Shown here one piece after another: positions 4,372 through 16,925 of a DNA stretch of 20,000 bases (the first letter of the stretch is position 1; the number at the start of each line of letters is the position of its first letter). Source of the stretch: an uncultured virus (IMG/VR IMGVR_UViG_3300032334_001252) (Duplodnaviria > Heunggongvirae > Uroviricota > Caudoviricetes). Position numbers and translations under genes: made by a program. The notes under the pieces were generated by a model, which made no database searches, was not told where the DNA came from, and was given only the letters and a program-made list of their open reading frames with translations. The DNA lies in IMG/VR virus record IMGVR_UViG_3300032334_001252; one strand, 5' to 3'.

Positions 4372-4388
4372 TTAAATTATTGTATAAT
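4360..4388 (+). promoter_or_regulatory. sigma70-type promoter
   Basis: TTGAAC-17 nt-TATAAT; ATG only 6 nt downstream, so probably a leaderless mRNA. Confidence 0.7.
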
Positions 4389-4394
4389 ATAAAT

Positions 4395-4949
4395 ATGAAA
4401 CCAAATTACTTTTACATTAATAACATCTTAACAAAAGAAGATTGTGAACTAATAGTTGCAAAACAATTAGAACAAAACTTTGAAAAAGGTACTACTAGTA
4501 CAAAACAACAATCAATTTTTGAAAGAAATAGTTTTGTTAATTGGGTATTACCACAAACAATTTTAGACCCGTTAATGTATAGAATAATGGACGCGGTTAG
4601 ATTTCACACAATGAATGAGTTTGAATTTCCTGTTGGACAAGGAGAAATAATTCAATTTGGGGAATATGGATTTTTACAACATTATAGAGAACACATAGAC
4701 TGTAACATAACTAAACCTTATAGATTTATAAGTGCTACAGTACAACTTACTGACCCTAAACAGTATTTAGGGGGTAATTTACAAATAAAAAGAGGACCAT
4801 ATGATTGGGAAACTACACCTAAACAACAAGGTATTTTAACAGTATTTCCAAGTATGTTACCTCACAGGGTTACCCCAGTTTTATGGGGTAAAAGGCACTC
4901 ACTAGCACTATGGTTTGATATTGCTAGAGAGTATGAAGATGTTCAATAG
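4395..4949 (+). CDS. 2OG-Fe(II) oxygenase (prolyl-4-hydroxylase/PKHD-like)
   Basis: HID...YLGGNL...FPS..PHRVTPV..G.R.SL..W facial triad. Confidence 0.85.
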   Translation: MKPNYFYINNILTKEDCELIVAKQLEQNFEKGTTSTKQQSIFERNSFVNWVLPQTILDPLMYRIMDAVRFHTMNEFEFPVGQGEIIQFGEYGFLQHYREHIDCNITKPYRFISATVQLTDPKQYLGGNLQIKRGPYDWETTPKQQGILTVFPSMLPHRVTPVLWGKRHSLALWFDIAREYEDVQ

Positions 4950-6574: not shown

Positions 6575-6603
6575 TTGATTTCTTCAACAAATAATAGTAT
6601 AAT
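6575..6603 (+). promoter_or_regulatory. sigma70-type promoter
   Basis: TTGATT-17 nt-TATAAT. Confidence 0.75.
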
Positions 6604-6624: not shown

Positions 6625-6822
6625 ATGGCAGGATATACTAAAGAATTTTTAATTGCAGCTTTTGTTAGCCGTTATGAGTGTTTAGGTTTAGAAGCTGTAG
6701 AGCAACAATATCGATTAGCATCAAAAACATGGGATATGTACCCTGTAGAAAAGTTTAGACAATATTGCAGTTTAGATGCTAATGCAATTAAACTTTATAA
6801 AGAAAAGTTAACACAACAATAG
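6625..6822 (+). CDS. hypothetical protein
   Basis: ATG after GGAG; last base of stop TAG is G1 of tRNA-Leu. Confidence 0.7.
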   Translation: MAGYTKEFLIAAFVSRYECLGLEAVEQQYRLASKTWDMYPVEKFRQYCSLDANAIKLYKEKLTQQ

Positions 6823-6904
6823 CCCCGATGGTGGAATTGGTAGACACGCTGGTCTTAGAAGCCAGTGCGCAAGCATCCGAGTTCGAGTCTCGGTTGGGGC
6901 ACCA
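6822..6904 (+). tRNA. tRNA-Leu(UAG)
   Basis: GCCCCGA/TTGGGGC, CT-TAG-AA, long variable arm, ACCA. Confidence 0.95.
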
Positions 6905-6915
6905 AGGAATTTTAA

Positions 6916-7533
6916 ATGCAAACAATAGTAAATGACTATTTATATAGTTTTCAATTAGATAATATTGATAATAATGCACTATTCAACAAGTGTTTAGTTA
7001 TTGAAGATATTATTATTCAAACCACACCGGCTGCTGAAAAAGGTTGGTATGGTAATCTTACTAGTGCTAAAAATCAAAGTTATAATTTATTTACTTTTCC
7101 AGTAAAAGAGTTACACGAACTTTATCAAGCAATGGTAAAAAATATTACACCACTACTAGATAAAGATACCAGCTATGTATTAAAAAGCTGGATGAATGTA
7201 TATCGTAATGGTGATAAAGTAAGTTGGCATCAACATTGGCCTCCTAAAGATAAAGTATGGCATGGTTTTTATTGTGTAAATGTTGGCAAAAATGAAAGTG
7301 CTACCAATTATAAAATACCAGGAATTAAAGAAATTATTAATGTTCCTAGTATTGATGGATTATTGGTAGTAGGCAAAAGCGATGACGATAAACACAGCAG
7401 TACAGAGTGGCAAGGTAATAAACCACGTATTACATTAGCATTTGATATTGTTCCTATGTGGGCAGTAAATCCTAATGAAAATACAGATATGCATCATTTA
7501 CAACTATACCACTATATACCATTTAAAGCATGA
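6916..7533 (+). CDS. divergent putative 2OG-Fe(II) oxygenase (TIGR02466-like fold)
   Basis: SWMNVY...WHQH...HGFYCV...GLLVV...HSS...RITLAFD. Confidence 0.6.
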   Translation: MQTIVNDYLYSFQLDNIDNNALFNKCLVIEDIIIQTTPAAEKGWYGNLTSAKNQSYNLFTFPVKELHELYQAMVKNITPLLDKDTSYVLKSWMNVYRNGDKVSWHQHWPPKDKVWHGFYCVNVGKNESATNYKIPGIKEIINVPSIDGLLVVGKSDDDKHSSTEWQGNKPRITLAFDIVPMWAVNPNENTDMHHLQLYHYIPFKA

Positions 7534-7820
7534 CACAAAAAATAGCAATTAATACAGATTTTGGCGGATTCGGTCTTAGTGATGAAGCAATAGACCTTTA
7601 CAAAATCTTAACGGGAATCCCTCCCGCTGAAGATGTATATTACTGGGAAATTGACAGAGATAACCCAGTACTTATACAAATCATAGAACAACTAAATGAA
7701 CGTGCTGGCGGAAAATACAGTAGTTTAAAAGTTGTAGAAATTCCTGATGGTGTCGAATGGCACATTCATGAGTATGACGGCATGGAACACGTAGCAGAAA
7801 ATCACAGAACATGGCACTAA
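7530..7820 (+). CDS. conserved hypothetical phage protein
   Basis: IN..FGGFGLS...RDNPVL...EYDGME. Confidence 0.75.
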   Translation: MTQKIAINTDFGGFGLSDEAIDLYKILTGIPPAEDVYYWEIDRDNPVLIQIIEQLNERAGGKYSSLKVVEIPDGVEWHIHEYDGMEHVAENHRTWH

Positions 7821-8824
7821 CACACACATTTAATCAAAACATTCAACGTATCGGTTTTGCTTGTAAAATCCAAGATAGTACAGGCAAAGCTGACCCTAAA
7901 CTGAACACAAAGACCACAACACTAACTTGGTTAAACAACCAACCACGCGATAAAAGTGTGCAAAAGCTAGAATTAATCATGGAAAGCAACTGCAATGCCA
8001 TGAAACAGCAAATGCACTGGCTAGCGAAACAGCCTAACAATCAGCGTATGTTTCGCATTAGTAGTGATCTTTTTCCTGCGTATACCCATGACGACTGGAC
8101 ATGGTGGTATTACGAACAAAATCAAATCAAATATTTAGAAAAACACTTAGCAGAAGTTGGCGAGTTGGCTAGACAGAATGACATTCGTCTTAGCTTCCAT
8201 CCTGGTCAATTCTGCGTATTAGCATCGGAAAATGATGGAATTGTTGATAACAGTATCAGGGAGTTTGAGTATCATACTGACGTGGCCAGGTATATGGGCT
8301 ATGGCAAATCTTTTCAAGACTTTAAGTGCAATGTACACATCGGTGGTAAACGCGGACCTGCTGGCATTCAAAGTGCTCTAAAGAAACTTAGCACTGAAGC
8401 ACGTAATATCTTAACTATCGAAAATGCCGAGTATACATGGGGTCTAGACGCTAGTCTAGAACTTATGCTTGACTGTGCCTTAGTCTTAGACATTCATCAC
8501 CACTGGATTGCTAGTGGTGAATATATTACGCCAGAGGATGACCGTTTTAAAGCTGTTATCGAATCATGGCGTGGTGTACGTCCTGCCATGCACTATAGCG
8601 TTAGTCGCGAAGATGTAATCGTAGATCATGACCCTAACACAAAGCCTAATCTAATGGAACTGAAAGCTCAGGGTTTTACGTCGACTAAACTACGAGCACA
8701 CAGTGAATACTACTGGAATGAGGCAAGTAATAATTGGGCCTTGACATTTTTGCCTTATGCTGATATAATGTGTGAATCAAAACAAAAAAACTTGGCAAGT
8801 CAACAACTAGCCAATATGTTATAA
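7811..8824 (+). CDS. uvsE: UV damage endonuclease (UvsE/UVDE)
   Basis: RIGFAC, FRISSDLFP, RLSFHPGQF.VLAS, TIEN, LVLDIHHH, HYS, AHS, DIMCESKQK. Confidence 0.92.
   Translation: MALTHTFNQNIQRIGFACKIQDSTGKADPKLNTKTTTLTWLNNQPRDKSVQKLELIMESNCNAMKQQMHWLAKQPNNQRMFRISSDLFPAYTHDDWTWWYYEQNQIKYLEKHLAEVGELARQNDIRLSFHPGQFCVLASENDGIVDNSIREFEYHTDVARYMGYGKSFQDFKCNVHIGGKRGPAGIQSALKKLSTEARNILTIENAEYTWGLDASLELMLDCALVLDIHHHWIASGEYITPEDDRFKAVIESWRGVRPAMHYSVSREDVIVDHDPNTKPNLMELKAQGFTSTKLRAHSEYYWNEASNNWALTFLPYADIMCESKQKNLASQQLANML
8741..8769 (+). promoter_or_regulatory. perfect-consensus sigma70 promoter inside uvsE, upstream of the main tRNA array
   Basis: TTGACA-17 nt-TATAAT plus extended -10 TG. Confidence 0.85.
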
Positions 8825-8878
8825 GTTTAACATGGCCCCCTTATGTTTGTTATTAGCAAGCATCTTGGGGGTTCTTCT

Positions 8879-8955
8879 CCGTGTATAGCGCAGTCTGGTA
8901 GCGCATCTCGTTTGGGACGAGAGGGTCGCAAGTTCGAATCCTGCTACACGGACCA
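8879..8955 (+). tRNA. tRNA-Pro(UGG)
   Basis: CCGTGTA/TACACGG, TT-TGG-GA, ACCA. Confidence 0.95.
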
Positions 8956-8956
8956 T

Positions 8957-9031
8957 GGGCTGATAGTGATAATGGGAGCACAGTGGCTTTGCAAGCCTCG
9001 GGTGGGAGTTCGATCCTCCCTCGGTCCACCA
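8957..9031 (+). tRNA. tRNA-Ala(UGC)
   Basis: G3:U70 pair, TT-TGC-AA, ACCA. Confidence 0.92.
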
Positions 9032-9047
9032 ATTTAAAAGGAAAATT

Positions 9048-9170
9048 ATGAAAACACGAAAACCTAGAAACCACATTATAATTGCTTTAATGAAACGCAA
9101 TGGTAGTGGTTCACATAAAAAAACCACAAAGCAGCTTCGTGGTAAATGGAAGCGCATAACGGACGTATAA
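9048..9170 (+). CDS. 40-aa basic peptide, weakly ArfA-like
   Basis: AAGGA RBS; MKTRKPRNHIIIALMKRNGSGSHKKTTKQLRGKWKRITDV; stop lies inside tRNA-Lys. Confidence 0.6.
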   Translation: MKTRKPRNHIIIALMKRNGSGSHKKTTKQLRGKWKRITDV

Positions 9171-9235
9171 CTTAACGGCTAAAGTAACTGGCTTTTAACC
9201 AGTAAATCAGAGTTCGATTCTCTGTGCGTCTACCA
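9161..9235 (+). tRNA. tRNA-Lys(UUU)
   Basis: GGACGTA/TGCGTCT, CT-TTT-AA, ACCA. Confidence 0.92.
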
Positions 9236-9311
9236 TATAAAAACACATTGTCCTAGGCTGTGACCTAGTCCATCAGAAGTCCTTGTAGACAGAAGCAGTG
9301 TGTTTCTATAT
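9236..9311 (+). ncRNA. stem-closed RNA cassette 1 (unknown)
   Basis: TATA-A-AAACACATTG / CAGTGTGTTT-C-TATA stem enclosing CTAGG-CTGTGA-CCTAG hairpin. Confidence 0.5.
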
Positions 9312-9403
9312 GGAAAGTAATGCAGTGGGGTTGGTCCCGCGACTGGCCTTGAAAACCAGGTTCTCCTAACGGGGATGGGGTTCGACTCCTCTGCTTTCCG
9401 CCA
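9312..9403 (+). tRNA. tRNA-Ser(UGA), 8/4-type
   Basis: 8-bp acceptor GGAAAGTA/TGCTTTCC, 4-bp T-stem, long variable arm, G73, CCA. Confidence 0.85.
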
Positions 9404-9404
9404 T

Positions 9405-9480
9405 GCAACTTTAGCTGATGTGGTCATAGCGGTGGTCTGAAGAACCATTGAACTAGGTTCGATTCCTAGAGGTTGCACCA
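9405..9480 (+). tRNA. tRNA-Phe(GAA)
   Basis: GCAACTT/AGGTTGC, CT-GAA-GA, ACCA. Confidence 0.92.
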
Positions 9481-9485
9481 TATAC

Positions 9486-9573
9486 GGAAGATTACCCAAG
9501 CGGTTACGGGAGCAGTTTGCTAAACTGTCGTTGAGAAATCGGCGCATTGGTTCGAATCCAATATCTTCCGCCA
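9486..9573 (+). tRNA. tRNA-Ser(GCU)
   Basis: GGAAGAT/ATCTTCC, TT-GCT-AA, long variable arm, GCCA. Confidence 0.95.
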
Positions 9574-9584
9574 GTATTTTTAGG

Positions 9585-9657
9585 TGTGACCTTAGTGTAA
9601 CGGTTAGCACCCGAGATTGTGATTCTTTTAGTATGGGTTTGATTCCCATAGGTCACC
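9585..9657 (+). tRNA. tRNA-His(GUG), U-1, no encoded CCA
   Basis: GTGACCT/AGGTCAC, C73, TT-GTG-AT; T-loop TTTGATT and 3' CCT are atypical. Confidence 0.8.
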
Positions 9658-9679
9658 CCTAAGGGTATTAAGGAAAAGT

Positions 9680-10000
9680 ATGGATAGCTTATACACACAA
9701 AAATTACAACAGTATACTGAAGCACTACAAACAATTATTGAAAAAGCAGAAACTTTTAAAACTGGTGACAGTGTTAGCTGGGGTAGTAGTGGTGGTAAAG
9801 CACGCGGCAAAATTACTAAAATTATTAAAAATGGTAGCGAACAAGTACCTAACAGTAGTTTCAAAATAACTGGTACACCCGACGATCCTGCAGCACTAAT
9901 TCGTGTTTATCGCCCCGATAGTGATGGCAAATATAAACCTACAGATACTATTGTAGGACACAAAACTAGTTCACTAACAAAAATATCAGGATTAAATTAA
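9680..10000 (+). CDS. DUF2945/Hva1 Tudor-like domain protein
   Basis: FKTGDSVSW.SSGG..RGKITKI...TPDDPA..I...VGHK.SSL. Confidence 0.65.
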   Translation: MDSLYTQKLQQYTEALQTIIEKAETFKTGDSVSWGSSGGKARGKITKIIKNGSEQVPNSSFKITGTPDDPAALIRVYRPDSDGKYKPTDTIVGHKTSSLTKISGLN

Positions 10001-10002
10001 AT

Positions 10003-10302
10003 ATGCCGTGTATTAAATGTAGTAACGGCAAATATAAATATGGCGAACATGGCAATTGTCAGTTTGATACGCTAGCCTCCTGCAAAGCTGCAGCAGCGGC
10101 TATACATATTCCAAAGGAAGAGAGTATGAAACCTAAAAAGAAACCTCCACTTTCGGCTATTAAACCTGAAGCTGGACCACATGGACCAATCCCAGAAGGA
10201 AAAGATATGCAACCTATTCAACCAGTTCAACCTATGAACCCACATCATGATGCTACTTGCCAATGTGCTAGTTGCAAAGGTATGTATCCTAAATATAAGT
10301 AA
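10003..10302 (+). CDS. hypothetical Cys/Pro-rich protein
   Basis: 99-aa ORF; internal AAGGA+ATG (MKPKKK) may be a second start. Confidence 0.6.
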   Translation: MPCIKCSNGKYKYGEHGNCQFDTLASCKAAAAAIHIPKEESMKPKKKPPLSAIKPEAGPHGPIPEGKDMQPIQPVQPMNPHHDATCQCASCKGMYPKYK

Positions 10303-10310
10303 GGAATTTT

Positions 10311-10526
10311 ATGAAACTTAAACCAACAAATGTTCGTGAACCACAGCTAACCGCAATTGGTAAACCTTATGACGAAGGATTTGCTGAAATTCGTGACCCT
10401 AAAACTGGTGCTGATGTAGGCGATATTCTTCCTGGAAGTATTGAGCTTTATCCAGTAGATATGCCTGATCGTGATGGTAGTACTACTCACCAAGGCGATA
10501 TGGGTCGACTAGGTAAGTCAGAATAA
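10311..10526 (+). CDS. hypothetical protein
   Basis: AAGGA RBS, 71 aa. Confidence 0.7.
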   Translation: MKLKPTNVREPQLTAIGKPYDEGFAEIRDPKTGADVGDILPGSIELYPVDMPDRDGSTTHQGDMGRLGKSE

Positions 10527-10530
10527 TATT

Positions 10531-10568
10531 AGCCCCCATAGTCGTGTTAAGGCTCAAAAAGACGCGAC
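10531..10568 (+). promoter_or_regulatory. putative H-type pseudoknot in 5' leader
   Basis: S1 AGCC/GGCT, S2 GTCGTGTT/GACGCGAC, A-rich linker CAAAAA. Confidence 0.45.
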
Positions 10569-10599
10569 CTTTCTATCACACACATCACAAGGAAATTAT

Positions 10600-10827
10600 A
10601 TGAACCCGTTTGAAATTCGTGCCGAAATGCTTAAAATGGCACAAGATTATTTGACAAAACAACAAGAAATCAATACTGATTTTGCCATGCAAACTTTTCA
10701 GCAATTAGTTGCTCAAGGTAAGAAAACTGCAGACGAGTGGCAAACTTATGCTCCTAAAATGTACACATTTGAAGATGTACTAAAAGAAGCTAATAAGTTG
10801 TATGGATTTGTCAAAGATGCTAAGTAA
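10600..10827 (+). CDS. hypothetical helical protein (MNPFEIR family)
   Basis: AAGGA RBS preceded by CA-rich tract. Confidence 0.75.
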   Translation: MNPFEIRAEMLKMAQDYLTKQQEINTDFAMQTFQQLVAQGKKTADEWQTYAPKMYTFEDVLKEANKLYGFVKDAK

Positions 10828-10924
10828 ACTATATAGCGGCATAGTCCGTTTTATTGAAATTATGCAAGACGTTCAAGCTGAGCGTGCTAAAGCCTATGCC
10901 AAATATGGAAGGGTTTCAGAATGA
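10817..10924 (+). CDS. 35-aa hypothetical protein
   Basis: Hand-translated MLSKLYSGIVRFIEIMQDVQAERAKAYAKYGRVSE; overlaps both neighbours (ATGA coupling at 3' end). Confidence 0.5.
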   Translation: MLSKLYSGIVRFIEIMQDVQAERAKAYAKYGRVSE

Positions 10925-11094
10925 CAGCTATAACCGAAATGGTAGAACGATTAAAAGAAATTTTAGAGTGTAAACCTTACAGTATGGATCAGTTTATTGC
11001 TGATAATGATCCTAAGGATCATAAAGATGTTCAAAGACTAGAAGAACAGTGGATGCAATATCACAATCGTAAATTTTTTAGCACAAATTATTAA
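10921..11094 (+). CDS. 57-aa hypothetical protein
   Basis: Hand-translated MTAITEMVERLKEIL...FIADNDPKDHKDVQRLEEQW... Confidence 0.6.
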   Translation: MTAITEMVERLKEILECKPYSMDQFIADNDPKDHKDVQRLEEQWMQYHNRKFFSTNY

Positions 11095-11099
11095 TATAT

Positions 11100-11175
11100 C
11101 GCGGGGTACGTCAGCGGCAGACTGTCAGGCTCATAACCTGGAGGACGTGGGTTCGAGTCCCACCCACCGCAACCA
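11100..11175 (+). tRNA. initiator tRNA-fMet(CAU)
   Basis: C1:A72 mismatch, CGCGGGG start, CT-CAT-AA; extra A in 3' acceptor strand. Confidence 0.85.
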
Positions 11176-11222
11176 ATGGTAGGCTTTAACTAGCTGAAGC
11201 AGGTGAAAGCCCTGTCCTAAAC

Positions 11223-11269
11223 TAAGGTTTAGGTTTGCTAACAAAAAGCAAACCTAAGCCTTATTTTTT
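11223..11269 (+). terminator. long hairpin terminator / processing stem
   Basis: 17-bp TAAGGTTTAGGTTTGCT/AGCAAACCTAAGCCTTA followed by T6. Confidence 0.7.
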
Positions 11270-11282
11270 CTGGAGAATAACA

Positions 11283-11513
11283 ATGAGTGATGGTGGAAAA
11301 GGTTCAAAAGCAAGACCCTTAACTGTATCAAATGAAGAGTATGCTAATCGTTGGGATGCTATTTTTGGTACAGATCAAAAAACAAAACAAGAACGTGCAT
11401 TAGATGAAATGGTTCGTATTAGCCAAGAAATGGGTTTGTACGATGAGTTTGAAGATAAACCTACTAGAAATAACAAAGAGACACAAACAGTAAAGATTGA
11501 GTATGTCAAGTAA
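11283..11513 (+). CDS. hypothetical protein (MSDGGKGSKARP family)
   Basis: ATG 11283 after GGAG RBS. Confidence 0.7.
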   Translation: MSDGGKGSKARPLTVSNEEYANRWDAIFGTDQKTKQERALDEMVRISQEMGLYDEFEDKPTRNNKETQTVKIEYVK

Positions 11514-11838
11514 GTTTAAAGAATTGTACTATCAATATACTATTGAAGTATATCAAACTATTTGCGTATTTTTATTTGTTGTAATAGTAATGCTATATGG
11601 TGTTATAGAGTTTAAAACTGGAGTTATGGAAGGTTATAAATCTACACTAGCACTTTTAAAAACACGCAGTGATGAACAAATTAGAGAAATCGCTGTGTTA
11701 CAAGAGCAGTACAAATATCAGACTCAAGAGATTGTTTTGCTAAAAGCTAAAGTAGCGCACGCAGACAATACAATGCGTAAAGACATTGAAGATTTAAAAC
11801 AACAACAAAATCCAGTAGTTAAACATCTTAGAAAATAA
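11503..11838 (+). CDS. membrane-anchored coiled-coil protein
   Basis: Hydrophobic ICVFLFVVIVMLYGVI then heptad-rich region. Confidence 0.65.
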   Translation: MSSKFKELYYQYTIEVYQTICVFLFVVIVMLYGVIEFKTGVMEGYKSTLALLKTRSDEQIREIAVLQEQYKYQTQEIVLLKAKVAHADNTMRKDIEDLKQQQNPVVKHLRK

Positions 11839-11912
11839 ATCTCCTTGGTGTAATGGCAGCACTGCAGTCTCCAAAACTGTAAGTGGGAGTTCGAGTCTCT
11901 CAGGGGATGCCA
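11839..11912 (+). tRNA. tRNA-Trp(CCA)
   Basis: ATCTCCT/AGGGGAT, CT-CCA-AA, GCCA. Confidence 0.92.
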
Positions 11913-11922
11913 AAATTTTCAT

Positions 11923-11951
11923 TTGATTTCATAATTGAATTTCTGTATAAT
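11923..11951 (+). promoter_or_regulatory. sigma70-type promoter
   Basis: TTGATT-17 nt-TATAAT. Confidence 0.75.
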
Positions 11952-11960
11952 TGATATATT

Positions 11961-12047
11961 GGGTAACGAGAAGCATTGGTGACTTCAGCAGACTGTAAAT
12001 CTGTCGCCTCTAGAGGCAACGGGGTTCGATTCCCTGGTTACCCACCA
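11961..12047 (+). tRNA. tRNA-Tyr(GUA)
   Basis: GGGTAAC/GTTACCC, CT-GTA-AA, long variable arm, G at position 8. Confidence 0.92.
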
Positions 12048-12053
12048 AATAAC

Positions 12054-12138
12054 GCGAGTATGGTGGAATAGGTAGACACAAGAGACTTAAAATCTCTCGC
12101 CGCAAGGTGTATCGGTTCGACTCCGATTACTCGTACCA
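12054..12138 (+). tRNA. tRNA-Leu(UAA)
   Basis: GCGAGTA/TACTCGT, CT-TAA-AA, long variable arm. Confidence 0.95.
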
Positions 12139-12154
12139 AATTTGAAAGTTGACA

Positions 12155-12766
12155 ATGAAAGTAGATGGATTGTGGGCAACACCAATATATCACAGTAGAT
12201 TAGATAACCAAAGTATACTTTTAGTACAAGAAGAATTTAAAAAAGTATATGATAGTTATATATTAAATGCTACATTTAATAAAAGATCAGATTGGGAAAA
12301 CAGAAGCCATAGTTTAAGCGATATTAGTTTTAATAGTAACTTTATTGAAGAATTTAATTTAATTCATTTTAAAAAAGTTATTGAAATTGCTTTAAAACAA
12401 TATATGTTTAGTATTAATCAACCAACTGATTACAAGTATAAATTATATGAATCTTGGATGACATTAACAAAACATAATGAATTTGCTATTCCACACAATC
12501 ATCCGCCTGCGGATATTTCAGGCGTATATTACTATCAAACAAATGGTAATGATGGAGATATTACTTTTATAGCACCTCCTTTGGGAGGTAGCTGGGTACC
12601 AAAATCAGGAAGCTTACTAGCTAATATTAGTTATAAACCTGAAGTAGGCAGATTATTATTGTTCCCAGGTTGGTTAACACATTATGTAAAAGCAAATGAA
12701 ACATATAATAATAGAGTTAGTGTTTCATTTAATATTAAGTTTCACAGAGAAAAATCGGTCTTATAG
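12155..12766 (+). CDS. putative 2OG-Fe(II) oxygenase (TIGR02466-like)
   Basis: SWMT...HNH...ISGVYY...PEVGRLLLFPGWLTHYV...RVSVSFN; stop inside tRNA-Asp. Confidence 0.8.
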   Translation: MKVDGLWATPIYHSRLDNQSILLVQEEFKKVYDSYILNATFNKRSDWENRSHSLSDISFNSNFIEEFNLIHFKKVIEIALKQYMFSINQPTDYKYKLYESWMTLTKHNEFAIPHNHPPADISGVYYYQTNGNDGDITFIAPPLGGSWVPKSGSLLANISYKPEVGRLLLFPGWLTHYVKANETYNNRVSVSFNIKFHREKSVL

Positions 12767-12832
12767 TGTTAGCGGTAAGCACGCGAGCCTGTCACGCTTG
12801 TAGGAGGGATTCGAATTCCCTTAAGACCGCCA
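12757..12832 (+). tRNA. tRNA-Asp(GUC)
   Basis: GGTCTTA/TAAGACC, CT-GTC-AC, GCCA. Confidence 0.93.
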
Positions 12833-12837
12833 AATAT

Positions 12838-12913
12838 TCCTCAGTAGCACAGCGGTAGTTGCACTTGACTGTTAATCAAGTTGTCCGTGGTTCGATCCCA
12901 CGCTGAGGAGCCA
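12838..12913 (+). tRNA. tRNA-Asn(GUU)
   Basis: TCCTCAG/CTGAGGA, CT-GTT-AA, GCCA. Confidence 0.95.
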
Positions 12914-12988
12914 GGTAATGTAGGACAATGGTAGTCTACCTCCTTCATACGGAGATTGTTAGTGGTTCAAATCCACTCATTACCACCA
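12914..12988 (+). tRNA. tRNA-Met(CAU), probably elongator
   Basis: GGTAATG/CATTACC, TT-CAT-AC, ACCA. Confidence 0.85.
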
Positions 12989-12991
12989 AGT

Positions 12992-13217
12992 TTTGTTAAA
13001 GTGTTAGCAAGAGAATGTCACGCTAGTAAGGTTTCTTCGAAGGACTGAGCTAGTAAAAGGTTGCGGGTTCGATTCCCGACTGATCGCCGTTTACGGTGGC
13101 GGTATACAGGTGGCGTATCAACTGGACTAGTATCCCAAGTAATGTACCCCCACCCGTCCGGACTATATACTCGGTGTGAATGGTTTCGATAAATCAGGGC
13201 GAAACTACTTTAACAAA
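12992..13217 (+). ncRNA. ~230-nt structured RNA with permuted tRNA-like domain (unknown family)
   Basis: 11-bp closing stem TTTGTTAAAGT/ACTTTAACAAA, GC-rich, no ORF, several helices, T-loop TTCGATT. Confidence 0.7.
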
Positions 13218-13226
13218 TTCAATTGT

Positions 13227-13300
13227 TGGGGTATAGTGTAATGGTAGCACTACGGATTTTGATTCCGTCAGTTGGGGTTCGAGTCCCTATACCCCTGCCA
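13227..13300 (+). tRNA. tRNA-Gln(UUG)
   Basis: TGGGGTA/TACCCCT, TT-TTG-AT, GCCA. Confidence 0.93.
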
Positions 13301-13301
13301 C

Positions 13302-13378
13302 ACGATCTTAGCACAACGGATTAGTGCACTTCGCTACGAACGAAGAGGTTAGGAGTTCAAATCTCTTAGATCGTACCA
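13302..13378 (+). tRNA. tRNA-Arg(ACG)
   Basis: ACGATCT/AGATCGT, CT-ACG-AA, ACCA. Confidence 0.93.
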
Positions 13379-13380
13379 TT

Positions 13381-13455
13381 AGCCTTATAGCTCAGAGGCA
13401 GAGCAATCGCTTGATAAGCGATAGGTCGACATCTCGGAATTGTCTAAGGCTACCA
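13381..13455 (+). tRNA. tRNA-Ile(GAU), atypical T-arm
   Basis: AGCCTTA/TAAGGCT, TT-GAT-AA; T-arm GACA-TCTCGGAAT-TGTC. Confidence 0.85.
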
Positions 13456-13467
13456 ATTTTTATTTAA

Positions 13468-13543
13468 GTCCCGTTCATCTAGCGGCCAAGGATAGTGCCC
13501 TTTCACGGCATTCACACCAGTTCGAATCTGGTACGGGACTCCA
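13468..13543 (+). tRNA. tRNA-Glu(UUC)
   Basis: GTCCCGT/ACGGGAC, CT-TTC-AC, CCA. Confidence 0.93.
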
Positions 13544-13552
13544 CTTATTACT

Positions 13553-14023
13553 ATGAAAACTTTTAATATTGAAGAAGTAAAAAATTATATTCGTGCTCAA
13601 AGTCCTGAAACTAAAATTTATTTAGGTGCAGATAGCGAGCGAATTAATATTAAAGGTATCTGGTATGCAGACTATACACTAGCCATTGTTGTTCATATTA
13701 ATGGCAACAGTGGCTGTAAAATTTTTGGAGACGTACACAGAGAGCGTGATTACGATCAAAAGTCTAATAAACCTAGTATGCGACTAATGCAAGAAGTTTA
13801 TAAAGTAGGCGATCTATTTCATGAATTAGCAGATGTATTAGAAGATAGATATGTAGAAGTACACTTAGACATTAACCCTGACGAAAAACACAAATCAAGT
13901 GCAGTAGTGCAACAAGCTGTAGGATATATCAAAGGTACTTGCAATATTGATGCGCTAGTAAAACCACGAGCATTTGCAGCAAGCTATGCTGCAGACCGAT
14001 TAAAATTTGTACTTGCAAACTAG
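13553..14023 (+). CDS. RNase H-like YkuK (DUF458) family protein
   Basis: KIYLGADS, RLMQEV, EVHLDINP, KP.AFAASYAAD. Confidence 0.8.
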   Translation: MKTFNIEEVKNYIRAQSPETKIYLGADSERINIKGIWYADYTLAIVVHINGNSGCKIFGDVHRERDYDQKSNKPSMRLMQEVYKVGDLFHELADVLEDRYVEVHLDINPDEKHKSSAVVQQAVGYIKGTCNIDALVKPRAFAASYAADRLKFVLAN

Positions 14024-14024
14024 T

Positions 14025-14171
14025 ATGAAAACAATTACAATACAACTTGACATTAATTTAGTTAAACAATTAAAATTTATAGCTAAACAGCGAAAACTTA
14101 CACTAAGCGAATTAGTAAACGAAATACTTAAACTTAAACTACAGGAGTTAGAAGATGACCGACCGTTTTGA
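14025..14171 (+). CDS. ribbon-helix-helix (CopG/Arc-like) small protein
   Basis: Hand-translated MKTITIQLDINLVKQLKFIAKQRKLTLSELVNEILK... Confidence 0.6.
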   Translation: MKTITIQLDINLVKQLKFIAKQRKLTLSELVNEILKLKLQELEDDRPF

Positions 14172-14379
14172 TTTAGAACAACAAATTATGCAGTGCTGGA
14201 CGATTACTGAAGACATTAAGTTATTGAATACTTATGTACTGGAAGGTAAGATCGAAGGTGGAGAAATGACTCAGGATGAGATTTCAAACTACCTCTTGGG
14301 ATTAGAGTCGATCTATAACCTAAAATTTGAACAAATGTTTCACACATTCAGTACACTAGTTCACGACAAGAAAATTTAA
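14155..14379 (+). CDS. hypothetical phage protein (DRFDLEQQIM family)
   Basis: AGGAG RBS, 74 aa. Confidence 0.75.
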   Translation: MTDRFDLEQQIMQCWTITEDIKLLNTYVLEGKIEGGEMTQDEISNYLLGLESIYNLKFEQMFHTFSTLVHDKKI

Positions 14380-14380
14380 T

Positions 14381-14456
14381 GTACGCGTGACCCGAATGGT
14401 TAGGGCTCGGATTGCAAATCCGCACTATGCAGGTTCAAGTCCTGTCGCGTACTCCA
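14381..14456 (+). tRNA. tRNA-Cys(GCA)
   Basis: GTACGCG/CGCGTAC, TT-GCA-AA, U73, CCA. Confidence 0.93.
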
Positions 14457-14459
14457 TTT

Positions 14460-14532
14460 AGTCAGTTCCCAGATGACTTTAAAAATGTGGGCTGCTCAAT
14501 GGCCAACGCAAAGAGCATAAGGTAACAGTTGG
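14460..14532 (+). ncRNA. putative tandem pseudoknot RNA
   Basis: AGTCA/TGACT + CCCA/TGGG; TGCTC/GAGCA + CCAAC/GTTGG. Confidence 0.45.
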
Positions 14533-14536
14533 ATTT

Positions 14537-14611
14537 GCCGACTTAGCACAGTGGTAGTGCAATCGCCTTGTAAGCGATAGGTCATCAGTTCGAATCCGAT
14601 AGTCGGCACCA
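14537..14611 (+). tRNA. tRNA-Thr(UGU)
   Basis: GCCGACT/AGTCGGC, CT-TGT-AA, ACCA. Confidence 0.95.
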
Positions 14612-14625
14612 TATAGAAAGTTTAT

Positions 14626-14754
14626 ATGATCGGTAATTTAATCTTAGTTGCTATAATTATAGGACTGCATGGTTATTGGATTTATGCAATAGCTACCTAT
14701 GACTGGTCTAAACATGATGAAGATAAAACTACATACGACAATGATATGTGGTAA
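14626..14754 (+). CDS. 42-aa single-pass membrane peptide
   Basis: Hand-translated MIGNLILVAIIIGLHGYWIYAIATYDWSKHDEDKTTYDNDMW. Confidence 0.55.
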   Translation: MIGNLILVAIIIGLHGYWIYAIATYDWSKHDEDKTTYDNDMW

Positions 14755-14755
14755 C

Positions 14756-14863
14756 TATAACAAAACACACTACTTGCCACTTAATAAATATACGCGGAGT
14801 ATCGTACGTAAACCTTCCGCGGGTAACTAGGTCGCACCTAGCATAGGTAGTGTGTTTTCTATA
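14756..14863 (+). ncRNA. stem-closed RNA cassette 2 (unknown)
   Basis: AAAACACACTAC/GTAGTGTGTTTT stem; inner CGCGGA/TCCGCG and CTAGGT-CGC-ACCTAG. Confidence 0.5.
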
Positions 14864-14947
14864 TTTAAACACTTTGGTCAGCACTGTGGGAAGCGCAGAT
14901 GGACAACACTAGAACAAGGTTCGAATCCAAACTAGGGTGTTTAAATA
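14862..14947 (+). ncRNA. stem-closed RNA cassette 3 with T-loop sequence (unknown)
   Basis: 17-bp TATTTAAACACTTTGGT/ACTAGGGTGTTTAAATA; inner CTGTG/CGCAG hairpin and GGTTCGAATCC. Confidence 0.5.
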
Positions 14948-14948
14948 T

Positions 14949-15275
14949 GGTTGTATGAAATAGACAGAAAAGCGTTGTGGACGCGGGTGCAAATCCCGCC
15001 AGCTCCACCATAAAGTATATTGAAGCGATCGATAGCTGTGGGACGCGTTCCGACTTTAAGTGCGATATACTTTTTGATGGGGCTGTTATAGATTCGACAT
15101 GGCGACAAGTACAAAAGTGGACAACTCGGAAAAGTGGAATCCGTTAGGACTGGGGAATCCTGGTCGCAGAACACACCAAAAGTAAACGCAAACGACTCAC
15201 AGTTCGCATTGGCAGCCTAAACGCTGACTAGGGTTTTGTCAAGTTTTCCTCGTAACAGAATAAACTTGACCCTAA
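14949..15275 (+). ncRNA. ssrA: circularly permuted (two-piece) tmRNA; tag (A)NDSQFALAA
   Basis: T-arm and CAGCTCC-ACCA (ends 15010) precede GGGGCTG..ATTCGAC (starts 15079); G3:U70; tag ORF 15188-15220. Outer ends approximate. Confidence 0.92.
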
Positions 15276-15293
15276 ATTTAACAAGGTAACACA

Positions 15294-15884
15294 ATGACAG
15301 AAGATATTAAAATTACAACACCTGCAGAGTATTTTACTAAAAATACTGGCAATCAATATGAGTTTTACCTTAGCGGTCAAATTGAGTCTGCTGATAATTA
15401 TATTCAATGGTTTGATGTAATCAGAAATGCTAGGGAACAGGACACAGTAAAAATCTATATTAATAGCCCTGGTGGTGACTTGTATACTGCACTACAATTT
15501 TTGCGTGTAATGGGTGAGTGTGAAGCGCACTTGGTCACCAGTGTTGAAGGTTGTTGCATGAGTGCAGCTACCATGATATTTTTAAGTGGTCATGAGTATC
15601 AAGTAACTCCACACAGTTTATTTATGTTTCACAATTACAGTGGTGGCGTATTTGGTAAAGGCGGTGAACAATACGATCAAATTCAGTACGAACGTGCTTG
15701 GTCTGAAAAGTTTATGAACGAAGTCTACAAAGACTTCTTAACCACTGACGAAATCAAGTCTATGTTAGATAACAAAGATATTTGGATGACGTCGGAACAA
15801 GTATTAGAACGTATCGAAAAGGTAATGAAAAAGTTACATGAAGAACAACAAGCTATGGAAGCTGCTAGCCAAATCGCTGGGTGA
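15294..15884 (+). CDS. clpP: ClpP-like serine protease (peptidase S14)
   Basis: IYINSPGGD, CMSAATMIFLSG (Ser), FMFHN (His), KDIWMT (Asp). Confidence 0.88.
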   Translation: MTEDIKITTPAEYFTKNTGNQYEFYLSGQIESADNYIQWFDVIRNAREQDTVKIYINSPGGDLYTALQFLRVMGECEAHLVTSVEGCCMSAATMIFLSGHEYQVTPHSLFMFHNYSGGVFGKGGEQYDQIQYERAWSEKFMNEVYKDFLTTDEIKSMLDNKDIWMTSEQVLERIEKVMKKLHEEQQAMEAASQIAG

Positions 15885-16002
15885 TAAATCTGGTTGGGAT
15901 GAGCGTTCTAGTGATCAAATTGCACTAATTAGATTAGCAGTTGTTTTAGTATACATTATAACTAATATTTTTATCATCAGTGGTGTTATACATCACTGGT
16001 AA
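15838..16002 (+). CDS. 54-aa membrane peptide
   Basis: Hand-translated MKNNKLWKLLAKSLGDKSG...IALIRLAVVLVYIITNIFIISGVIHHW. Confidence 0.6.
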   Translation: MKNNKLWKLLAKSLGDKSGWDERSSDQIALIRLAVVLVYIITNIFIISGVIHHW

Positions 16003-16004
16003 TT

Positions 16005-16080
16005 GCAGGTAAGGTGTTTATGGATACACGCAAGTCTTCCAAACTTGAGTAGACCAGTTCGATACTGGCTACCTGCTCCA
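16005..16080 (+). tRNA. tRNA-Gly(UCC)
   Basis: GCAGGTA/TACCTGC, CT-TCC-AA, U73, CCA. Confidence 0.9.
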
Positions 16081-16086
16081 AATAAT

Positions 16087-16162
16087 GCGTGCTTAGCTCA
16101 GTTGGTAGAGCGGAACGTTGCCAACGTTCAGGTCGCAGGTTCGAACCCTGTAGCCCGCACCA
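16087..16162 (+). tRNA. tRNA-Gly(GCC)
   Basis: GCGTGCT/AGCCCGC, TT-GCC-AA, A73. Confidence 0.9.
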
Positions 16163-16163
16163 A

Positions 16164-16238
16164 GCCCAGTTAGCTCAGTGGTAGAGCAATGCTTTTACAC
16201 GGCGGAGGTCGGCAGTTCGAAACTGTCACTGGGTACCA
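16164..16238 (+). tRNA. tRNA-Val(UAC)
   Basis: GCCCAGT/ACTGGGT, TT-TAC-AC, weak anticodon stem. Confidence 0.9.
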
Positions 16239-16251
16239 CAAAGGAAAACAA

Positions 16252-16830
16252 GTGTCTAATATATTTTTTTGTAGCGATCATCACTTTCATCATGCCAACA
16301 TCCTAAACTTTAAGCGCGATGATAGTACACCACTTCGCACATTTGATGATGTTAATCACATGAATGAGTACATGGTTATGCAACATAACCGAGTGGTTAA
16401 ACCTAATGATAAAGTATATTTTTTAGGTGACGTTGCTATGCCAAAAACGGCAGAAGCATTAAAAATCTTGGCTAGAATGAATGGCGAAAAGATTTTAATT
16501 AAAGGCAATCACGATATATGTAAACCTACACAATACCTAGAGTATTTTAAAGATATTCGTGGTGTATATCATATTGATGGATTTGTAATGAGCCATGTGC
16601 CATTACATCCAGACTCATTACAACGATGGGGTATTAACATACACGGACACTTACATCAAAGAGAAGTATTGCTAGACAATAAACATCCAGATACTAGATA
16701 CTTTAGTGTTTGCATGGAACGATTAGATGACTATCAACCCATTTCACTAGAACAAATTAAAAAGCAATGTTTGGTGCGCAAACAGCACTCGCATCATTAT
16801 TTTGATTATGATAGAAATTTGGGCCGGTAG
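16252..16830 (+). CDS. calcineurin-like metallophosphoesterase
   Basis: SDHHFHH, YFLGD, KGNHD, SH.P, NIHGHLH; GTG start after AAGGA; stop inside tRNA-Ile2. Confidence 0.88.
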   Translation: MSNIFFCSDHHFHHANILNFKRDDSTPLRTFDDVNHMNEYMVMQHNRVVKPNDKVYFLGDVAMPKTAEALKILARMNGEKILIKGNHDICKPTQYLEYFKDIRGVYHIDGFVMSHVPLHPDSLQRWGINIHGHLHQREVLLDNKHPDTRYFSVCMERLDDYQPISLEQIKKQCLVRKQHSHHYFDYDRNLGR

Positions 16831-16895
16831 CTTAATGGTAAAGCAGGCGACTCATAATCGCTTGAGTGGGAGTTCAATTCTCTCTCGGCCCACCA
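16821..16895 (+). tRNA. tRNA-Ile2(CAU), lysidine type
   Basis: GGGCCGG/TCGGCCC; anticodon arm GGCGA-CT-CAT-AA-TCGCT as in enterobacterial ileX. Confidence 0.85.
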
Positions 16896-16898
16896 CTA

Positions 16899-16925
16899 CA
16901 ACCCAGCTTTAAGCTGGGTTTTTTG
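16899..16925 (+). terminator. intrinsic terminator ending the tRNA region
   Basis: AACCCAGC-TTTAA-GCTGGGTT followed by T-tract. Confidence 0.85.

Follow-up and report, generated by a model that had tools for sequence, protein, structure and literature searches.

The DNA under study was a stretch of 20,000 nucleotides (nt), hereafter the window, from an uncultured phage (IMG/VR record IMGVR_UViG_3300032334_001252; Caudoviricetes), in which one strand carries transfer RNA (tRNA) genes, a two-piece transfer-messenger RNA (tmRNA) and small protein genes in mixed order. Four of the protein genes have stop codons that reach the first base of a downstream tRNA or lie inside it, and these genes were compared with their relatives in other phages and in bacteria. 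In three of them, the overlap with the tRNA was labile and is better explained by compaction. In the fourth, which encodes a basic peptide of 40 amino acids (aa) and runs into tRNA-Lys, the overlap was kept among close relatives, and expression coupled to tRNA processing and to trans-translation is plausible from the sequence comparisons for this peptide alone. The four open reading frames (ORFs) and the tRNAs that they meet are the following:

6625..6822, plus strand: 65-aa ORF; GGAG 8 nt 5' of its ATG; 24 relatives on viral contigs
6822..6904, plus strand: tRNA-Leu(tag); ARAGORN; Rfam 55.5 bits
9048..9170, plus strand: gene of the 40-aa basic peptide, family KPRN...GxGxH.K..K..R; its TAA is positions 8-10 of tRNA-Lys
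9161..9235, plus strand: tRNA-Lys(ttt); ARAGORN; Rfam 66.7 bits
12155..12766, plus strand: 2-oxoglutarate (2OG)-Fe(II) oxygenase, TIGR02466-like; PF13759, phrog_81; its TAG is positions 8-10 of tRNA-Asp
12757..12832, plus strand: tRNA-Asp(gtc); ARAGORN and Rfam
16252..16830, plus strand: metallophosphoesterase; phrog_547; probable GTG start; its TAG is positions 8-10 of the CAT tRNA
16821..16895, plus strand: CAT-anticodon tRNA (Met or Ile2); ARAGORN and Rfam

The ORFs end at 6822, 9170, 12766 and 16830, and ARAGORN placed the tRNA starts at 6822, 9161, 12757 and 16821. Rfam backed all four tRNAs (53-69 bits against a gathering score of 29), and the +1 base pairs with position 72 in each acceptor stem as read from the sequence. 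The initial annotation had put three of the stops at tRNA positions 8-10 and had the fourth use G1 of tRNA-Leu, and the coordinates bear this out: TAA 9168-9170, TAG 12764-12766 and TAG 16828-16830 are positions 8-10, and the final base of TAG 6820-6822 is G1. All four genes have the layout described for T4 segB, with the ORF on the same strand as the tRNA and the predicted ribonuclease P (RNase P) site falling after the final full sense codon and before the stop codon is complete. The oxygenase matched PF13759 over positions 1-101 of 101 (E 9e-19) and also phrog_81, the phosphoesterase matched phrog_547 (E 5e-51), and the 65-aa ORF had no Pfam or PHROG family. Judged by family match for two of them and by many relatives for the other two, all four ORFs are real genes.

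The placement of a stop at tRNA positions 8-10 is not beyond chance. TAG, TAA or TGA occupies these positions in 17 of the 25 tRNAs of the window, so any ORF that reads through in that frame ends there. The initial annotation had itself cautioned that U8-A9-R10 is the first stop such an ORF would meet and that compaction alone could explain the overlaps, and for three of the genes this caution holds.

RNase P cuts every precursor tRNA at +1, and the predicted site at tRNA-Lys (9160/9161) lies two bases past codon 37 of the peptide gene, which has a Shine-Dalgarno sequence and starts 16 nt 3' of tRNA-Ala. Relatives of the peptide numbered 11 in databases, and more than 100 loci carried it. The sample of 123 loci (94 distinct sequences) was drawn from viral contigs (42), metagenomes (80) and the window itself, and was divided into a close subfamily of 72 distinct sequences, 69 of them evaluable (three had too little downstream DNA), and a distant subfamily of 22. 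Over 26 distinct core sequences the mean synonymous difference (pS) was 0.52 and the mean nonsynonymous difference (pN) 0.13, a pN/pS of 0.25, which marks the peptide as a real protein under purifying selection whose amino acids are kept while the DNA drifts. A Lys-codon leader peptide was considered and rejected, as residues other than Lys are conserved and the pN/pS is low. The peptide had no match in Pfam, PHROG or NCBIfam, none in GenBank phages by tblastn with the low-complexity filter on, and only unnamed clusters in the Atlas. A literature search confined to main texts found no paper on this peptide family or on a rescue factor made stop-less by a tRNA. Residues 16-24 resembled the ribosome-bound segment of eukaryotic SERBP1 over nine residues at a non-significant E of 0.4-0.7, a curious resemblance in a putative binder of ribosomes.

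In the close subfamily, the stop fell inside tRNA-Lys in 63 of the 69 evaluable sequences. The positions were distributed as follows:

Positions 8-10 of tRNA-Lys: 58/69 close relatives
Positions 6-8 of tRNA-Lys: 4/69
Positions 1-3 of tRNA-Lys: 1/69
Stop 1 nt ahead of tRNA-Lys: 4/69
Stop elsewhere: 2/69

One truncated close member, misfiled as distant, likewise stops inside tRNA-Lys. The peptide junction was kept on contigs where the junction of the phosphoesterase had changed (L148/L030, L156/L006 and L166/L004) and on others where that of the 65-aa ORF had changed (L153/L038 and L159/L050), and the gene upstream of the peptide varied widely among relatives. In the four loci with a stop 1 nt before the tRNA (L153, L160, L162 and L165), the final codons resemble the 5' end of the tRNA, and it looks as if the shared bases had been duplicated, undoing the overlap. 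Two intermediate homologues of the peptide (L324 and L325) end in sequence that resembles the 5' part of tRNA-Lys, where no tRNA was called; this sequence may be a decayed tRNA.

The profile of the phage peptide retrieved 104 representatives at E <=1e-3 among 1.84 billion proteins, and several of these (55-101 aa) carry the conserved core followed by unrelated tails. Bacterial relatives were present at 17 loci, whose record titles name Neisseria and Neisseriales metagenome-assembled genomes (MAGs), Burkholderiales MAGs, Burkholderia stagnalis and Herminiimonas species. These loci were found with a narrower alignment; a scan of genomes with the phage-only alignment gave none. The phage and bacterial alignments matched each other in hhalign with a probability of 98.9% (E 3e-17), and by this comparison the 40-aa peptide is homologous to small betaproteobacterial proteins of an unnamed family. 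The gene neighbours of the bacterial homologues were unrelated from locus to locus. In 8 of the 17 bacterial loci, our own scan located a hairpin and T-run inside the frame, 1-29 codons before the stop. These in-frame hairpins make up 10 of the 14 terminator-like sites that the scan placed on the plus strand across the 19.3 kb of bacterial loci. In a ninth locus the stop falls in a hairpin loop. The family of the rescue factor ArfA (PF03889) matched in none of five bacterial genomes of uncertain completeness and was detected in the E. coli control. Terminators in Neisseria arfA were reportedly described by Schaub et al. in 2012.

Small basic proteins that are encoded by truncated messages are known in bacteria. 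The message of ArfA is cut before its stop by RNase III or by a terminator hairpin, the protein is repressed by trans-translation and the truncated product retains all conserved residues (PMC8012679). BrfA of Bacillus subtilis has a rho-independent terminator inside its coding region, ahead of the stop (PMC6881298). Both are made from stop-less messenger RNAs (mRNAs) and are reported to accumulate only if trans-translation fails (PMC8012679, PMC6881298). A third factor, ArfT, is about 40 aa long; ArfA, BrfA and ArfT are described as having no sequence relationship, and the existence of further factors of this kind is anticipated (PMC8012679, PMC6881298). BrfA is given as confined to Bacillus, and a review cites its structure entry 6SZS (PMC6881298, PMC8012679). 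The family of the window's peptide is like these three, as they are described there, in size, charge and gene architecture, and unlike them in sequence. PF03889 matched neither the peptide nor 14 or 31 members of its family nor 20 wider relatives, and by these profile comparisons the peptide is not a member of the ArfA family. The device would also differ, in that ArfA is truncated by RNase III or a terminator hairpin, whereas the window's peptide message would be cut by RNase P at a tRNA. The internal terminator of BrfA has a counterpart in the terminator-like hairpins of the eight bacterial homologues, whereas the window's own gene has none and a tRNA follows instead.

The overlaps of the other three genes changed readily among relatives. 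Of the 24 relatives of the 65-aa ORF, only two enter tRNA-Leu(tag), where they stop at positions 13-15; 20 stop 97-2764 nt ahead of the next tRNA and two have no downstream tRNA. In its closest long relative the frame closes on a TGA of its own, and the next tRNA is 2031 nt away. In animal mitochondria, tRNA punctuation leaves incomplete stop codons, and the message of the 65-aa ORF would similarly end in UA after excision of the tRNA; completion of stops by polyadenylation is not known in bacteria or phages. Among eight relatives of the phosphoesterase at 60-96% identity, one has the arrangement of the window (positions 8-10), three overlap the CAT tRNA in a different register (TGA at 5-7) and four have their own stop 138-1265 nt ahead of the next tRNA. 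The C-terminal tails of the phosphoesterase vary among these eight, and its more distant relatives do not adjoin tRNAs. Relatives of the oxygenase were found by an alignment-based scan of viral contigs, a scan with the single protein having given none. They came from 79 viral loci, 55 of them scorable, and none of the 55 overlaps a tRNA, although two end 1-3 nt before one. The oxygenase homologues finish right after a conserved motif, and the window's protein is five residues longer. From these comparisons, the three overlaps appear labile, and they are better accounted for by compaction, with U8-A9-R10 being the first stop within reach.

The initial annotation had read all four overlaps as a processing-coupled expression switch, in which intact protein is made only from unprocessed transcript, and had proposed to drop that reading if homologues usually stop before the tRNA. 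Because the homologues of the 65-aa ORF, the oxygenase and the phosphoesterase mostly stop outside a tRNA, the switch is refuted for those three genes. The peptide fares differently: its homologues in the close subfamily do not usually stop ahead of the tRNA, and coupling remains plausible because the overlap is kept (63/69) and because bacterial homologues would reach a stop-less message by way of a putative internal terminator.

The spacing of genes and tRNAs was also investigated. Ten gene-to-tRNA junctions in the window consisted of four overlaps, three spacers of 0-2 nt, two of 6-8 nt and one of 54 nt. A wider census covered the window and 134 related loci with 302 tRNAs. For ORFs of at least 60 aa it held 127 distinct junctions, with the stop beginning at -10 to -2 in 46 of them and 26 overlaps (stop positions -1 to 58); the overlapping ORFs were divided 11:7:7 by frame, without a frame preference. 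For ORFs of at least 100 aa, 113 junctions comprised 19 overlaps, 50 stops within -12 to -2 and 44 further off. A separate 60-aa row beside this 100-aa census was left unused, because peptide loci, whose frame runs open across the tRNAs upstream, inflate its counts. Spacers between genes and tRNAs in this phage group thus cluster at 0-10 nt and the overlaps use all three frames, as expected of compaction. The overlaps are the tail of a very tight spacing distribution, confined to places where constrained tRNA sequence offers a stop.

The terminal CAT tRNA was the most heavily overlapped. Four unrelated types of upstream ORF (the phosphoesterase and ORFs of 139, ~51 and 46 aa) all overlap it, and overlaps made up 13 of the 21 distinct junctions there, including 12 of 12 at tRNAs that start like the window's type. 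The TGA at positions 5-7 of this tRNA is the stop of three unrelated genes, namely the phosphoesterase, the 139-aa ORF and the cysteine-rich ORF of ~51 aa (loci L337, L338, L339, L340, L342, L003-L005 and L009). We read these overlaps as strong packing at a tRNA that offers both TGA 5-7 and TAG 8-10; they are nonetheless the strongest case left for selection acting on the overlap itself. Two further junctions were observed in the arrays. An ORF of 67-74 aa (14155-14379 in the window) lies 1 nt from tRNA-Cys at 14381, a spacing shared by all five near-complete relatives. An ORF of ~70 aa, which is a candidate gene only, recurs with its end at position 8 or 12 of tRNA-Phe(gaa), which lies a few hundred bases 3' of tRNA-Lys (loci L139, L147, L151, L265, L283, L302, L143, L163 and L296).

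The window is AT-rich (33-42% G+C) and carries every gene from ~4.1 kb onward on the plus strand. ARAGORN called 24 tRNAs and a permuted tmRNA between 6486 and 16895, all supported by Rfam; an extra tRNA at 13381-13452 (Rfam 51.9 bits), absent from its output, brings the array to 25 tRNAs. The initial annotation had also placed a tmRNA with the tag ANDSQFALAA in this region, and ARAGORN and Rfam agree with it. The tmRNA matched RF04321 with 111.7 bits over 14949-15220 (gathering score 47) and RF01849 with 57.9 bits over 14906-15271, so that both a covariance-model match and a tag frame closing in a stop identify it as a two-piece tmRNA. Between tRNA-Lys and tRNA-Phe, positions 9312-9399 form a tRNA-like element with a long extra arm, which scored 37.1 bits with the tRNA-Sec model (below its gathering score of 47) and may be a serine tRNA missed by both finders. 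Other features of the array are:

6575..6603, plus strand: promoter-like site just 5' of the 65-aa ORF; consensus match only
8741..8769, plus strand: promoter-like site, TTGACA, 17 nt, TATAAT, with TG; 12/12; consensus match only
14906..15311, plus strand: two-piece (permuted) tmRNA; ARAGORN 14918-15311; RF04321 and RF01849; tag ANDSQFALAA
15294..15884, plus strand: ClpP-like protease gene, starting inside the 3' end of the tmRNA as called by ARAGORN
16900-16920, plus strand: terminator-like hairpin 3' of the CAT-anticodon tRNA

The site at 8741..8769 stands upstream of tRNA-Pro, tRNA-Ala, the peptide gene and tRNA-Lys, and suggests that these four lie on one transcript. A consensus scan gave terminator-like hairpins at 11223 and 16900, and together with the promoter-like sites at 6575 and 8741 they are compatible with long mixed mRNA-tRNA transcripts. 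The interleaved tRNA, tmRNA and protein genes would be transcribed together. Phage-type proteins encoded among the RNA genes include a UvdE endonuclease, the ClpP-like protease, an RNase H-like protein, 2OG-Fe(II) oxygenases, ThyX, Hsp20, MazG, an endolysin and a helicase. Four 2OG-Fe(II) oxygenase-like genes occur within 12 kb (1398-1988 on the minus strand, 4380-4949, 6916-7533 and 12155-12766). The tmRNA lies directly upstream of the ClpP gene in 6 of 76 related ClpP loci, a tight order that was considered as a tmRNA-ClpP module and rejected at this frequency. A search of GenBank phages at the DNA level gave no close relative of the window, the matches being single tRNAs only. The closest near-complete relatives were five IMG/VR genomes of ~100 kb (94-100% complete), and the peptide and a permuted tmRNA are both present in all five. 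The window is best described as part of an uncultured phage genome in which the tRNAs, the two-piece tmRNA and small protein genes share one strand.

Several elements of this arrangement have precedents. For T4 segB, maturation of tRNA-Arg was proposed to cut between the last codon and the stop and so restrain expression, and ORFs of F-Tfl endonucleases in the tRNA clusters of T5 are mentioned in the same sense (PMC2330249). The segB authors, Brok-Volchanskaya et al. 2008, proposed that the cut lowers expression and yields a premature product (PMC2330249). The general idea that tRNA processing limits an overlapping gene is thus already published for T4 segB. Like those genes, as they are presented there, the protein genes of the window lie in a phage tRNA cluster on the same strand; unlike those homing endonucleases, they encode an oxygenase, a phosphoesterase, a 65-aa ORF and a 40-aa basic peptide. 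In further contrast, the array of the window includes a tmRNA, and three of the four stops are set 8-10 nt into the tRNA. In E. coli, secG and leuU share one transcript that RNase P separates, and the secG mRNA has a half-life of less than 30 s (Mohanty and Kushner, PMC2241853). The window would resemble this case in having mRNA and a downstream tRNA on one transcript, although secG is a host gene with its own stop upstream of the tRNA, unlike the four phage genes. Phage two-piece tmRNAs are already known: the OM43 phage Melnitz, an aquatic phage, carries a permuted tmRNA of the alphaproteobacterial type and four tRNAs (PMC9004378). Melnitz and the window have this kind of tmRNA in common, and the passages on Melnitz make no mention of genes that overlap tRNAs (PMC9004378).

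We propose that gene ends in this phage are pressed against tRNAs, and that a gene without its own stop would read on to the first stop that the tRNA offers, usually U8-A9-R10. For the 65-aa ORF, the oxygenase and the phosphoesterase, the overlap would be a tolerated by-product of tight packing. Ribosomes that finish ahead of the RNase P cut would terminate normally at the tRNA-borne stop, and those on a cut fragment would stall on reaching its 3' end and pass to trans-translation. Cleavage at +1 would in this way leave some stop-less fragments of the three genes, as a load on trans-translation and not as a switch. The peptide gene and tRNA-Lys would instead form a conserved unit, with the peptide translated largely from a stop-less message. 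It would be tagged and destroyed while trans-translation has capacity and accumulate otherwise, following the logic of ArfA and BrfA; as the cut message still encodes all 36 conserved residues, the yield could track spare tmRNA capacity. Co-transcription, the kinetics of RNase P cleavage, tagging and ribosome-rescue activity in this phage we infer. To the joint reading, a packing by-product for three genes and a peptide meant for translation largely from a stop-less message, we assign a probability of about 0.5.

A more far-reaching version is that the peptide represents a new family of small basic proteins that rescue ribosomes, or whose production is at least gated by trans-translation; these would be functional analogues of ArfA, BrfA and ArfT. 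The devices would then be an internal terminator in bacteria and RNase P at the 5' end of tRNA-Lys in phages. We hold this version tentatively and consider it rather doubtful.

Many observations weigh against a deliberate stop-less message. In the distant phage subfamily, 20 of 22 members have ordinary stops and only two stop inside tRNA-Lys; a search of the 3' ends of this subfamily for hairpins or terminators found none, and the next gene starts 1 nt after the stop. The four close relatives that end 1 nt before tRNA-Lys also have ordinary stops, and a tmRNA is present even in the two phage genomes where the peptide gene supplies its own stop. Eight residues follow KQLRG in 57 of the 63 forms that stop in the tRNA and in 19 of the 20 with a stop of their own, the tails are alike, and the tRNA-borne stop occupies the codon at which free-standing homologues end, which fits a length-preserving fusion with a functional full-length product. 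Among the bacterial homologues, 8 of 17 loci have no internal hairpin and end in ordinary stops. A simple terminator scanner, given three of the bacterial hairpins, recovered none on the plus strand and one on the minus strand; in our reading, the scanner may miss them because the A-tract and T-tract pair and are absorbed into the stem. The dipeptide FF, the translation of a T-run, follows the core in only 11 of 98 core-bearing representatives, so the internal-terminator device would be limited to a subset of the family. Comparison by hhalign of the peptide with E. coli ArfA and an ArfA alignment gave E values of 0.18, 0.39 and 0.31, over a short GxGS...RGxW stretch, and the peptide profile had no match among all solved chains, with no rescue factor at E up to 10. 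Finally, non-overlapping junctions were equally conserved, at tRNA-Cys (1-nt spacer, 6/6 arrays) and at tRNA-Gly(gcc), which another ORF abuts with a 0-1 nt spacer in 5/5 arrays, so conserved adjacency alone proves little.

An alternative is that all four overlaps, the peptide's included, reflect compaction and inheritance, in which case the stop-less fragments would carry no regulatory meaning. A deletion at a short similarity would have fused the 3' end of the peptide gene to tRNA-Lys, a change that was harmless and hard to undo. The equal tail lengths and residues, the conserved junctions at tRNA-Cys and tRNA-Gly(gcc), the distant subfamily working with ordinary stops and the lack of the T-run signature in most representatives all fit this account, as does a typical junction geometry that differs by tRNA type. 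It leaves unexplained, however, the in-frame terminator-like hairpins of the eight bacterial loci, a feature otherwise known from ArfA and BrfA, and it sits poorly with a peptide junction that was remodelled repeatedly (stops at 8, 6, 1 and -3) with a spacer that never exceeded 1 nt. We regard this alternative as a serious possibility, though short of probable.

It is also conceivable, if improbable, that the peptide is a working partner of tRNA-Lys kept for co-expression, for example one that protects the tRNA against host nucleases or exploits it. The link is specific to tRNA-Lys, which 67 of the 69 close relatives abut and inside which two of the 22 distant ones stop, and phage tRNA-Lys is described as a counter-defence tool (PMC11464382, PMC10264068). 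However, the bacterial homologues and 20 of the 22 distant phage homologues adjoin no tRNA, no domain or motif of the peptide suggests nuclease inhibition, and the proposal is wholly inferential. Most improbable is a selected processing-coupled switch for all four genes: it would agree with stops that all lie at or past the RNase P site, a tmRNA in the same array, a CAT tRNA overlapped by unrelated ORFs and the proposal for T4 segB and tRNA-Arg (PMC2330249), but homologues of three of the genes mostly do not overlap, frame and stop position vary (5-7, 8-10 and 13-15), C-terminal extensions are not conserved, overlapping ORFs are spread over all three frames, and genes with 0-2 nt spacers would equally lose their mRNA on cleavage.

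Stops borrowed from tRNAs appear to be a routine cost of packing phage tRNA arrays, and in annotation they should not be taken as switches without comparative support. If the peptide is indeed gated by trans-translation, RNase P would be a third route to a deliberate stop-less message, after RNase III hairpins and internal terminators. Phages of this group would then manage ribosome rescue with a tmRNA and a back-up factor, both encoded in the tRNA array, and the homologues in betaproteobacteria would qualify as candidate rescue factors.

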